From: Escherichia phage vB_EcoM-BECP11
Sequence record: MW286157.1
Reading direction: 5' to 3' (one strand)
Length of the DNA stretch: 64,000 nt
Position numbers and translations under genes: made by a program. Below, piece after piece: positions 58,427 through 60,122 of the stretch (within the stretch, counting starts at the first letter, position 1; each line of letters opens with the position of its first letter). The notes below the pieces were generated by a model. It was given only the letters and a program-made list of their open reading frames with translations, was not told where the DNA came from and did no database searches.

Positions 58427-58456
58427 GTTTACATCCTTGTCCTTCCATGGTACTAT
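58427..58456 (+). promoter_or_regulatory. early promoter (-35 GTTTAC, -10 TACTAT)
   Basis: gtttac 58427-58432, tactat 58451-58456. Confidence 0.6.
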
Positions 58457-58499
58457 ACAACTATCGGCAATACTGCTGATAATTAAAGAGGAAAATAAT

Positions 58500-58730
58500 A
58501 TGGCTAAAGTTGATATTGACATCGTTGATTTTGAATATATTGAAGAAATTATTCGTAATCGTTATCCTGAACTTAGTATCACAAGTATTCACGATGATCC
58601 CAATTATTGCAATTTTTCTATTGTCATTGAAGGTCCTCTTGAAGACCTCACCCGCTTTATGGCTAATGAATATTGTGATGGTATGGATTCTGAAGACGCA
58701 GAATTTTACATGGGATTGATTGAACAATAA
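58500..58730 (+). CDS. hypothetical acidic protein, 76 aa
   Basis: ATG 58500 after SD aagaggaaaat. Confidence 0.45.
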
Positions 58731-58775
58731 TTATCAAGGGGCTATTACAAGCCCCGTTAAAATGAGGAAAACGTA

Positions 58776-59141
58776 ATGTATATTGGCAAAAAGTATGAGC
58801 TTGTTCCAAGACTTATTGATACATTTATTAATTATCGCCCACGTTCTAATTCATCAATAGTTAAAATTATTCAAGAAAATGGTGGATGGTTTGAAGTTAA
58901 AGAAGCTTTCTTTGTTGATGGATTTAGAGTAATAAAACACATTGAATGCGCAAATGGAAAGCATTTTTACTTTAACGTTTGTGAAGACGAATTTCATTGT
59001 TTCCGCGAATATAAAGAACCTACTTCTGAAGAGGATGAAGTTAAAGACAAGGTTTCTGGCGTAACAAAAATTCACTGCATTGTTGACGAAAATAATGTAG
59101 ATGAAATCATTGAACTTTTGCGAAAAACTTTCAAAAAGTAG
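58776..59141 (+). CDS. hypothetical protein, 121 aa
   Basis: SD gaggaaaacg then ATG. Confidence 0.5.
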   Translation: MYIGKKYELVPRLIDTFINYRPRSNSSIVKIIQENGGWFEVKEAFFVDGFRVIKHIECANGKHFYFNVCEDEFHCFREYKEPTSEEDEVKDKVSGVTKIHCIVDENNVDEIIELLRKTFKK

Positions 59142-59170
59142 TTTACAACAGGGTAGTAGTGTGATACTAT
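59141..59170 (+). promoter_or_regulatory. early promoter (-35 GTTTAC, -10 TACTAT)
   Basis: gtttac 59141-59146, tactat 59165-59170. Confidence 0.6.
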
Positions 59171-59200
59171 TACCCTATCAAAACTAATGGAGAAAAGAAA

Positions 59201-59269
59201 ATGTTCGCACCTTATATTATGGCAGCAGTTATGTTGGTCTGTTTATATCTTTTGATTAAAGCTTGCTAA
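59201..59269 (+). CDS. 22 aa hydrophobic micro-peptide
   Basis: SD ggagaaaag then ATG 59201, own promoter; may be leader peptide or non-coding. Confidence 0.25.
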   Translation: MFAPYIMAAVMLVCLYLLIKAC

Positions 59270-59279
59270 GGAGAATAAA

Positions 59280-59522
59280 ATGAGATTACAACGCCAGAGC
59301 ATCAAAGATTCAGAAGTTAAAGGTAAATGGTATTTTAATATCATCGGTAAAGATTCTGGGCTTGTTGAAAAAGCTGAACATCTTTTACGCGATATGGGGT
59401 GGGAAGATGAATGTGATGGATGTCCTCTTTATGAAGACGGAGAAAGCGCAGGATTCTGGATTTATCATTCTGATGTTGATCAGTTTAAAGCTGATTGGAA
59501 AATTGTGAAAAAGTCTGTTTGA
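59280..59522 (+). CDS. hypothetical protein, 80 aa
   Basis: SD aaggagaat then ATG. Confidence 0.45.
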   Translation: MRLQRQSIKDSEVKGKWYFNIIGKDSGLVEKAEHLLRDMGWEDECDGCPLYEDGESAGFWIYHSDVDQFKADWKIVKKSV

Positions 59523-59532
59523 GGAAAATAAT

Positions 59533-59865
59533 ATGTCTGACATTCATGTAACTGGAATTGCTCAAGTAAACATCCGCTGCCAATTTAAAACTGTACCTGG
59601 GGTGACTCATATTACTTTATCACACGACCCATATTCTCGTGGAAGACAGTTAACTGGTGTAATTAAGTTTTTCGGTGGAATTGGTGGTAATGAATTTACT
59701 ATAGGCGATGAAGAAATTGTTGGATGTAAATTAAAAGTTCAGAAGGGCGTGTTAGAACTTTTTAGTGATGAAGTTTTTGATGAAATCTCACGAGCAGTTA
59801 ACAAAGGAATGTTAACGTTAATTAAAATGATTAAAGCTAGCGGATATGTTCCTGATCCTTTTTAA
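59533..59865 (+). CDS. hypothetical protein, 110 aa
   Basis: SD gaggaaaat then ATG. Confidence 0.45.
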   Translation: MSDIHVTGIAQVNIRCQFKTVPGVTHITLSHDPYSRGRQLTGVIKFFGGIGGNEFTIGDEEIVGCKLKVQKGVLELFSDEVFDEISRAVNKGMLTLIKMIKASGYVPDPF

Positions 59866-59876
59866 TAGGAGATAAT

Positions 59877-60122
59877 ATGATTTTTGTATTTGAATTTATG
59901 AATGATGAATTTGATTATGCAATTTTTAACGCATTACATAATCCTGATTTAAGTGAATTTAATGAAATGTTTTCTGACGCTTTGAGTATGTCAGAAGAAT
60001 ACTGTGGAGAATGTCAACGTGTTTGTGTGACAGTTTTTGAAAACAAAGAAAAGACGTATGAAGAATTATTCTTTGATGCTAATAAAGCCACTGAATGGTT
60101 TATTGAAAGGGGTTTTGCGTAA
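59877..60122 (+). CDS. hypothetical acidic protein, 81 aa
   Basis: SD aggaga then ATG; CGEC pair. Confidence 0.45.

Follow-up and report, generated by a model that had tools for sequence, protein, structure and literature searches.

A conserved 22-codon hydrophobic reading frame in the mosaic early region between gene 32 and frd of T-even coliphages

The 64,000-nucleotide stretch of Escherichia phage vB_EcoM-BECP11 analyzed here (sequence record MW286157.1; hereafter, the window) represents a Tequatrovirus genome, and the interval of interest, at positions 58427-60122, lies between gene 32 (57447-58355, + strand) and frd (60122-60736, + strand). The nearest relative is Escherichia phage BW-1, with 98.7% identity over the whole interval; together with its flanks, the interval is 95-98.7% identical to several dozen Tequatrovirus genomes, and 595 phage records were matched in all. 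The order on the + strand is gene 59 (56694-57347), gene 32, five open reading frames (ORFs), frd, an ORF of 115 amino acids (aa) and an intronless td (61119-61979, a contiguous 286-aa ORF), which matches the order in T4 (59-32-frd.3-frd.2-frd.1-frd-td, in the direction of early transcription) and in G4498. The five ORFs, of 76, 121, 80, 110 and 81 aa, had been listed by a first-pass annotation made from the DNA alone, and all of them are present. The block that they form is already known: it consists of T4 frd.1-frd.3 and two catalogued cassettes in a hyperplastic region of the PeSL (early promoter plus stem-loop) type. The only new point is a 22-codon hydrophobic micro-ORF between frd.2 and frd.1, which is missing from the T4 reference annotation and looks real, selected and movable.

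The micro-ORF (59201-59269, + strand) encodes MFAPYIMAAVMLVCLYLLIKAC and is the first cistron behind an early promoter designated P2 (GTTTACA-N17-TACTAT with a TG-extended -10; 59141-59170, + strand), beginning 31 nt after the -10 element. P2 abuts the stop codon of frd.2 and serves the micro-ORF, frd.1 and the genes further downstream. The first-pass annotation had credited the micro-ORF with its own promoter and Shine-Dalgarno sequence; the latter is indeed its own (GGAG, 59189-59192, + strand, 8 nt before the ATG), but the promoter is not private, being used in common with frd.1 and the genes that follow. The Shine-Dalgarno sequence of frd.1 (AAGGAG, 59268-59273, + strand) overlaps the stop codon of the micro-ORF to give TAAGGAG. 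A 12-bp hairpin covers the P2 spacer, the -10 element and the first transcribed bases (59150-59176, + strand; -15.2 kcal/mol, z -4.2). Mosigvirus ESh15 (-16.0 kcal/mol) and Dhakavirus (-16.0 to -16.6 kcal/mol) retain it, although the bases of the stem differ there; no similar hairpin was found at the other early promoters of the window. This hairpin would also form in RNA reading through from the upstream promoter P1, directly after frd.2. The P2 sequence together with its TACCCTATCAA leader occurs in 3-5 copies per Tequatrovirus genome, two further copies being present in the window. In phage Lutter, a third "promoter" is annotated at the equivalent of 59252-59281; we rejected it, since its -10 overlaps the frd.1 ATG and it therefore cannot serve frd.1.

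The micro-ORF had been described as isolated, and this description did not hold: it is neither isolated nor new to databases. By tblastn, it was recovered at full length in 200 phage records, with an identical protein in 161, a single replacement in 35 and more replacements in a few. T4 is among these records, its DNA being identical at 146018-146083 and in the stop codon, and both T4 records lack an annotation at this position. The micro-ORF spans three genera (Tequatrovirus, Mosigvirus and Dhakavirus), always has 22 codons, and occupies two genomic contexts: it lies between frd.2 and frd.1 in Tequatrovirus and in Mosigvirus ESh15, and between motB and cef in the Dhakavirus phages MN04, UP19 and Esco_phi_B-01. 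Every copy, those at cef included, has a P2-type promoter-hairpin upstream and a TAA fused to the next Shine-Dalgarno sequence (TAAGGAG), with 10-11 nt between its stop codon and the next ATG. We also considered whether frameshifting might fuse the micro-ORF to the gene that follows, and rejected this because the frame offset is +1 before frd.1 and +2 before cef. Shfl2, RB10 and, at the cef locus, JS10 show a precise gap of approximately 80 bp, at which the same leader runs straight into the same Shine-Dalgarno sequence; the T4-type indel is flanked by CTAA(T)GGAGAA.

The sole annotation that we found is that of one variant (MLAPYIMAAVMLVCLYLLIKAC), recorded as a hypothetical protein in phage ACG-C40 (RefSeq NC_019399, 143268-143336; YP_006986794.1). 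An exact look-up of eight variants in a collection of 15 billion proteins returned this variant only, the other seven being absent, and the peptide has no similarity to any Pfam, NCBIfam or PHROGs family. Back-translated pattern scans of IMG/VR with N- and C-terminal motifs, and of JGI metagenomes, returned only T4-type copies and chance matches in unrelated genes. The micro-ORF family thus appears, as far as these sequence collections reach, to be confined to T-even coliphages.

A micro-ORF of this length is not, on its own, beyond chance in AT-rich DNA, but its pattern of conservation among the copies compared appears to be. Coding tests were performed on eight DNA haplotypes by calculating Nei-Gojobori ratios of nonsynonymous to synonymous differences (pN/pS) against the T4 haplotype, with a Fisher test. 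The haplotype of OES_C-1, with four synonymous changes and one replacement, gave a pN/pS of 0.07 (p 0.005), and those of ESh15 and MN04 gave 0.14 (p 0.018) and 0.28 (p 0.013), respectively, a pattern of purifying selection. The variable sites fall on codon positions 1, 2 and 3 in the proportion 5/2/11 (chi-square p 0.03, eight haplotypes), and neither of the other two frames has such a codon-position or substitution pattern. Replacements are limited to F2L, A8T/V/I, A9V/T, M11I, L12V and V13I, all to hydrophobic or small residues, and the segments APYIM and CLYLLIKAC are invariant in all variants. All three genera retain a GGAG or GAGG at a distance of 8-9 nt from the start. The coding tests all point to a gene that is translated and selected to encode a hydrophobic helix.

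A different explanation for the same conservation is that the frame is fortuitous and lies in roughly 80 bp of mobile noncoding DNA travelling with the P2-type cassette, in which case the similarity of the copies would reflect recent horizontal spread. This explanation would fit the constant attachment of the micro-ORF to one promoter-hairpin-leader element that is itself repeated 3-5 times per genome, the precise presence/absence indel with its flanking CTAA(T)GGAGAA repeats, the large share of protein-identical copies (161/200), the invariance of the ORF ends even at third positions, and the dispensability of the micro-ORF in most relatives. However, despite differences at 12-13 of 66 nt, the copies in Dhakavirus retain the frame, length, start, stop and Shine-Dalgarno sequence. 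The changes among the haplotypes are mostly third-position changes or hydrophobic-for-hydrophobic first-position changes, second positions accounting for only 2 of the 18 variable sites, and the micro-ORF contains no indels, whereas the adjacent noncoding leader has indels between genera. Moreover, an overlapping 22-codon frame at 59187-59255, which we examined as a candidate and rejected, is not conserved in the other genera. We therefore regard a fortuitous frame as improbable.

The fusion of the stop codon to the next Shine-Dalgarno sequence raises the possibility that the micro-ORF is purely a translational device, an upstream ORF that loads ribosomes or melts the pairing between CUUUU (codons 17-18) and AAGGAG, so that frd.1 or cef is translated by coupling and the peptide itself has no role. 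The TAAGGAG overlap is present in every copy and in both genomic contexts, with the next ATG only 10-11 nt away, and minimum-energy folds pair CUUUU with AAGGAG in the leaders of both the T4 type and the Dhaka type. Against this stands the conservation of the amino acid sequence through synonymous change (pN/pS 0.07-0.28), which would not be required of a pure device. Phages that lack the micro-ORF carry the same AAGGAGAATAAAATG directly behind the same promoter, and the downstream gene therefore does not need the micro-ORF. The predicted structures are also no more stable than those of shuffled sequences: the leader RNA is less structured than its shuffles in the window (z +2.06), as expected for efficient translation initiation, and in MN04 (z +0.46). 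A search for an attenuator found neither a terminator nor alternative hairpins between the micro-ORF and frd.1, which are only 10 nt apart, and the leader RNA has no family match in Rfam. We accordingly consider it doubtful that the micro-ORF serves coupling and nothing else. The first-pass annotation had suggested testing the peptide for membrane insertion or a regulatory leader function; the leader function is not supported, because ORF-less phages use the same Shine-Dalgarno sequence directly and no attenuator was found, whereas the membrane idea is backed by the substitution pattern.

The predicted peptide has a grand average of hydropathy (GRAVY) of 2.05, with a range of 1.94-2.33 across the eight variants, and residues F2-I19 are uncharged and constitute a hydrophobic stretch of the approximately 18 residues taken to span a bilayer. 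A lipoprotein signal peptide was rejected, since the peptide stops at Cys22 (...IKAC) and the gene downstream is read in another frame. In its size, its hydrophobicity and its C-terminal basic residue, the predicted product resembles Ibs, ShoB and TisB, and it could be suspected of being a membrane-depolarizing toxin, type I toxin-like or holin-like, that contributes to an early shutdown of host energy processes or to superinfection exclusion; early expression from a strong promoter would suit such a role. The lack of similarity to any Pfam, NCBIfam or PHROGs family speaks against it, as does the apparent lack of a conserved antisense RNA: the sole antisense promoter-like site (59245-59216) is at chance level, coming from a scan that yielded 22 sites versus 15 expected, and its -35 is not kept in Dhakavirus. 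In addition, a phage that relies on host energy to replicate its DNA and make nucleotides would suffer from early depolarization. A toxin of this kind seems to us very unlikely.

Several observations weigh against the interpretation of the micro-ORF as a translated gene for a membrane peptide. The coding statistics rest on 22 codons and on eight haplotypes that are phylogenetically non-independent. Codons 3-7 and much of the 3' end are invariant at third positions too, which could reflect recent transfer or a constraint at the DNA or RNA level, and 22 residues is at the lower limit for a membrane-spanning helix. Approximately two thirds of the related phages lack the micro-ORF and have frd.1 directly behind the same promoter, and the literature that we searched contains no mention of the micro-ORF or its peptide; searches for ribosome profiling of T4 small ORFs likewise gave nothing relevant. 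The fitness of T4 was unaffected by a dCas13d guide lying over the last micro-ORF codons and the ribosome-binding site of frd.1 (PMC11879866). The T4 gene tables of this CRISPRi-ART study have no entry for the micro-ORF (PMC11879866), and the micro-ORF was therefore never targeted directly. From the guide without effect and the absence from about two thirds of relatives, it follows that any function of the micro-ORF would be conditional.

The five larger ORFs, unlike the micro-ORF taken alone, are far beyond chance open frames, with Pfam or PHROG matches at E-values ranging from 1e-32 to 1e-55. The first, frd.3 (58500-58730, + strand), encodes a 76-aa acidic early protein that matches Pfam Phage_FRD3 (PF05798; E 6e-38, 129.6 bits against a gathering score of 28.1) and phrog_1764. 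It is followed by frd.2 (58776-59141, + strand; 121 aa), a member of the GoF/MotB.1/Frd.2 family that matches Pfam FRD2 (PF03197; E 8e-32, 110.2 bits, gathering score 29) and phrog_622, and by frd.1 (59280-59522, + strand; 80 aa), which matches Pfam DUF5417 (PF17438; E 6e-32, 110.2 bits, gathering score 23.9). An ECDGC motif is invariant in the alignment of Frd.1, for which the predicted model is a small alpha+beta domain. The fourth ORF, a DUF7247 cassette gene absent from T4 (59533-59865, + strand; 110 aa; phrog_3566), matches its Pfam family with E 7e-44 and 149.2 bits (gathering score 27); its homologues number only 17, all of them at least 66% identical and all from T-even coliphages, and an AlphaFold2 model from this 17-sequence alignment had a pLDDT of 39 and no usable fold. 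The fifth ORF (59877-60122, + strand), also absent from T4, is an 81-aa acidic cassette gene of the RB32 orf231c type that matches phrog_3183 (E 4e-43) and has neither a Pfam nor a PDB match; its stop codon overlaps the frd start (TAATG). All four Pfam matches are full-length and above the curated gathering scores. Protein identity to T4 is 87% for Frd.3, 68% for Frd.2 and 96% for Frd.1, and Frd.2 has 121 aa in the window versus 128 aa in T4.

These ORFs had been described as having no recognisable function. This holds inasmuch as the reference annotations, which we checked for assigned functions, give none to any of the five; nevertheless, three of them are named T4 genes and four of the five belong to Pfam families. 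A sequence search of PDB with four of the ORFs gave nothing below E 0.3, NCBIfam had zero matches for the ORFs of the block, and BFVD returned only uncharacterised phage relatives; a literature search on frd.1, frd.3, DUF5417 and DUF7247 found next to nothing. The domain of the GoF/MotB.1/Frd.2 family has been predicted to be an N-terminal five-stranded bent beta-sheet, LSm-like or SH3-like, and Frd.2 is predicted to have an LSm-like N-terminal domain in common with GoF and MotB.1 (PMC12152347). An frd.2 amber mutant plates normally (PMC12152347), whereas in the T4 CRISPRi-ART study, in which frd.1 and frd.3 were "Not Fit", dCas13d knock-down made frd.2 the sole "Fit" gene of unknown function, with a marginal score of 0.83 and p 0.027 (PMC11879866). 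The two results could be reconciled if the guide had affected the P1 transcript, through polarity or at the RNA level, and the phenotype did not stem from the loss of Frd.2. The frd.3 mRNA of T4 has been listed among the abundant NAD-capped phage RNAs.

Transcription of the block has clear landmarks. Gene 32 ends in an intrinsic terminator hairpin found by a terminator scan (GGGGACC-CTAGA-GGTCCCC followed by a T run; 58378-58396, + strand), which folds with -14.3 kcal/mol (z -2.2) and is annotated as a terminator in G4498 and Lutter. The early promoter P1 (GTTTACA-N17-TACTAT with TG upstream of the -10; 58427-58456, + strand), which drives frd.3 and frd.2 and is conserved in T4, begins 31 nt downstream of this hairpin, and the two form a composite terminator-promoter unit of the PeSL type. 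A strict search for GTTTACW-N17-TAYWAT gave 12 matches in the window, all on the + strand, versus 0.06 expected from shuffled sequences. P1 and P2 are among them, and the other ten start at 10869, 20886, 28188, 29305, 33597, 38092, 38598, 41734, 44199 and 55127. Both promoters also fit the consensus of PST/T4 PeSL promoters, TTTACW-N17-TAYWAT (PMC4122927). The two early promoters of the first-pass annotation are thus exact consensus matches, and phage Lutter has annotated promoters at the homologous sites; the first-pass description of an accessory early block behind them holds. Between frd.3 and frd.2 lies an intercistronic stem-loop (GGGGCT-ATTACA-AGCCCC; 58738-58755, + strand; -11.9 kcal/mol, z -3.4) that is also present in T4 and, because it lacks a U tract, is probably an RNA stabilizer or attenuator. 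A repeat with 13 of 14 nt in common, TGATTAAAGCTTGC at 59253 and TGATTAAAGCTAGC at 59828, was treated as chance.

The small modules of the interval assort independently among relatives, and the interval is therefore a typical hyperplastic region. The micro-ORF, the DUF7247 gene and the 81-aa gene are all present in the window, G4498 and phage 107; T4 has the micro-ORF and neither of the other two, ACG-C40 has the micro-ORF and the 81-aa gene, Shfl2 has the 81-aa gene alone, and RB10 has the DUF7247 and 81-aa genes and lacks the micro-ORF. Across T4, ACG-C40, Shfl2, RB10 and the window, no fewer than five distinct combinations are represented. AR1 carries an additional 86-aa gene directly before P2. 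T4 retains a deletion scar between frd.1 and frd, a 16-codon ORF (MYVIEIIQVSIRFQLK; locus L001 (T4, NC_000866), 4200-4262, minus strand) that combines what is left of the 5' end of the DUF7247 gene with the final bases of the 81-aa gene. The DUF7247 gene of RB10 is intact (locus L026, KM606999, 1520-1849; 92% identity over 110 aa) and lies in a 355-bp stretch that is unannotated in GenBank.

The neighbouring genes vary as well. As the first-pass annotation had stated, no homing endonuclease is encoded here, since no ORF of the interval has a Pfam or PHROG match to GIY-YIG, HNH or LAGLIDADG. Unlike T4, the window lacks SegG between genes 59 and 32, and its td lacks the group I intron and I-TevI, both of which T4 carries. 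Frd has 204 aa in the window versus 193 aa in T4 and G4498. Two added A residues (TATAAAAATG versus TATAAATG; window 60690-60740) shift the TGA out of frame, so that frd gains 11 codons overlapping the beginning of the following ORF; this is probably a natural variant and not a sequencing error, because the annotation of RB10 has the same 204-aa form. The following 115-aa ORF (phrog_1928, without a Pfam match), at 60726-61073 between frd and td, has no counterpart in T4, where frd and td overlap. This ORF can also be read from 60702 as 123 aa, but the longer version probably arises artefactually from the frd extension.

Taking these observations together, we favor, as on balance probable, an account in which the interval is a hyperplastic early region and the micro-ORF is a genuine, translated micro-gene for a predicted membrane micropeptide. 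Host sigma-70 RNA polymerase would transcribe the block from P1 and P2 immediately after infection, and the block would be a row of small genes, each dispensable on its own, that serve host takeover or are accessory, a designation that assigns a class rather than a mechanism and to that extent weakens the account. Short homologous sequences at the gene borders, namely promoters, hairpins and Shine-Dalgarno sequences, would allow modules to be gained, lost and exchanged by recombination, and the micro-ORF would be the smallest such module. As the leading cistron in transcripts from P2, it would use its own GGAG for translation and yield an 18-residue hydrophobic helix with a C-terminal K-A-C. 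A chain of 22 residues terminates before it emerges from the ribosome exit tunnel, and other very small membrane proteins insert into the inner membrane after release. Because its chain is too short for co-translational targeting, the micropeptide would presumably enter the inner membrane after release too, where it may affect a component of the host membrane or the integrity of the membrane. Termination at the TAA inside TAAGGAG may hand ribosomes to frd.1, or to cef in Dhakavirus; because termination places ribosomes 10-11 nt from the next start, some coupling is a likely side effect.

As to the action of the peptide, we infer that modulation of a host membrane protein is more likely than plain depolarization, because the phage needs an energized host at this early stage. 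More tentatively, we speculate that the micro-ORF is an autonomous, horizontally mobile micro-gene that moves between early operons (that of frd.1 in Tequatrovirus and Mosigvirus, that of cef in Dhakavirus) by way of their promoter-hairpin and Shine-Dalgarno junctions, and that its transmembrane peptide disables or modulates a specific host membrane protein, such as a membrane-anchored defence effector, a transporter or a protease, to an advantage that depends on the host; this fuller account is possible, although we would not expect all of it to hold.

T4 is the reference genome for its virus family, and yet its annotation lacks a 22-codon gene under purifying selection. If translated, this would be, to our knowledge, the shortest protein-coding gene of T4 and a tractable example of the phage membrane micropeptides, which are systematically overlooked by annotation pipelines. 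The block also illustrates that the early regions of T-even phages are assemblies of exchangeable modules. The main value of the present analysis, however, lies in a concrete correction to the T4 reference annotation and in a micropeptide that can be tested.

The closest known counterpart of the block is that of T4 itself, in which frd.3, frd.2 and frd.1 (NC_000866, 145762-146802) have the same order and position, both promoters and the intercistronic hairpin in common with the window, whereas the window adds the DUF7247 and phrog_3183 genes between frd.1 and frd, where T4 has only the scar. PeSL cassettes, combining an early promoter with a stem-loop, have been described for T4-type phages (Arbiol et al. 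2010, PMC2839356; Comeau et al. 2014, PMC4122927), as has the PeSL-mediated shuffling of hyperplastic regions, and the mixture of modules among the relatives compared here behaves alike. As judged by sequence, the likeness extends to the joining of an early promoter to a stable stem-loop, with P1 behind a terminator hairpin and P2 bearing its conserved hairpin, and to the location of these putative exchange sites at the borders of small-ORF indels between close relatives, namely the micro-ORF indel after P2 and the AR1 gene before it. The differences are that the P2 hairpin is not placed upstream of the AT-rich region but covers the -10, and that the cargo, at 22 codons, is shorter than all other accessory ORFs encountered in this analysis.

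The bacterial proteins AcrZ, MgtS, Ibs, ShoB and TisB consist of a single hydrophobic helix, have approximately 20-50 residues and are encoded by short ORFs that annotation overlooked; the micro-ORF is like them in kind only, being non-homologous, phage-encoded, expressed early and without an evident antisense RNA partner. Nearer parallels exist among the phages themselves. The early intergenic gaps of the window hold three more very hydrophobic short ORFs with good Shine-Dalgarno sequences and a GRAVY of 1.25-1.81, of 46 aa (1143-1283), 32 aa (38493-38591) and 37 aa (38656-38769); the 37-aa ORF immediately follows an early promoter of the P2 type that shares the TACCCTATCAA leader. The 32-aa and 37-aa ORFs have annotated counterparts in the denB-ndd interval of G4498, KMC10_gp145 and gp146, which, like the micro-ORF, are very short, very hydrophobic, early and intergenic, each with its own Shine-Dalgarno sequence. 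The micro-ORF differs from these two genes in having no sequence similarity to them, in being 10-15 residues shorter and in being annotated only in ACG-C40 among the records viewed. With these likenesses and differences, the micro-ORF joins the tiny hydrophobic early ORFs of the T-even phages.

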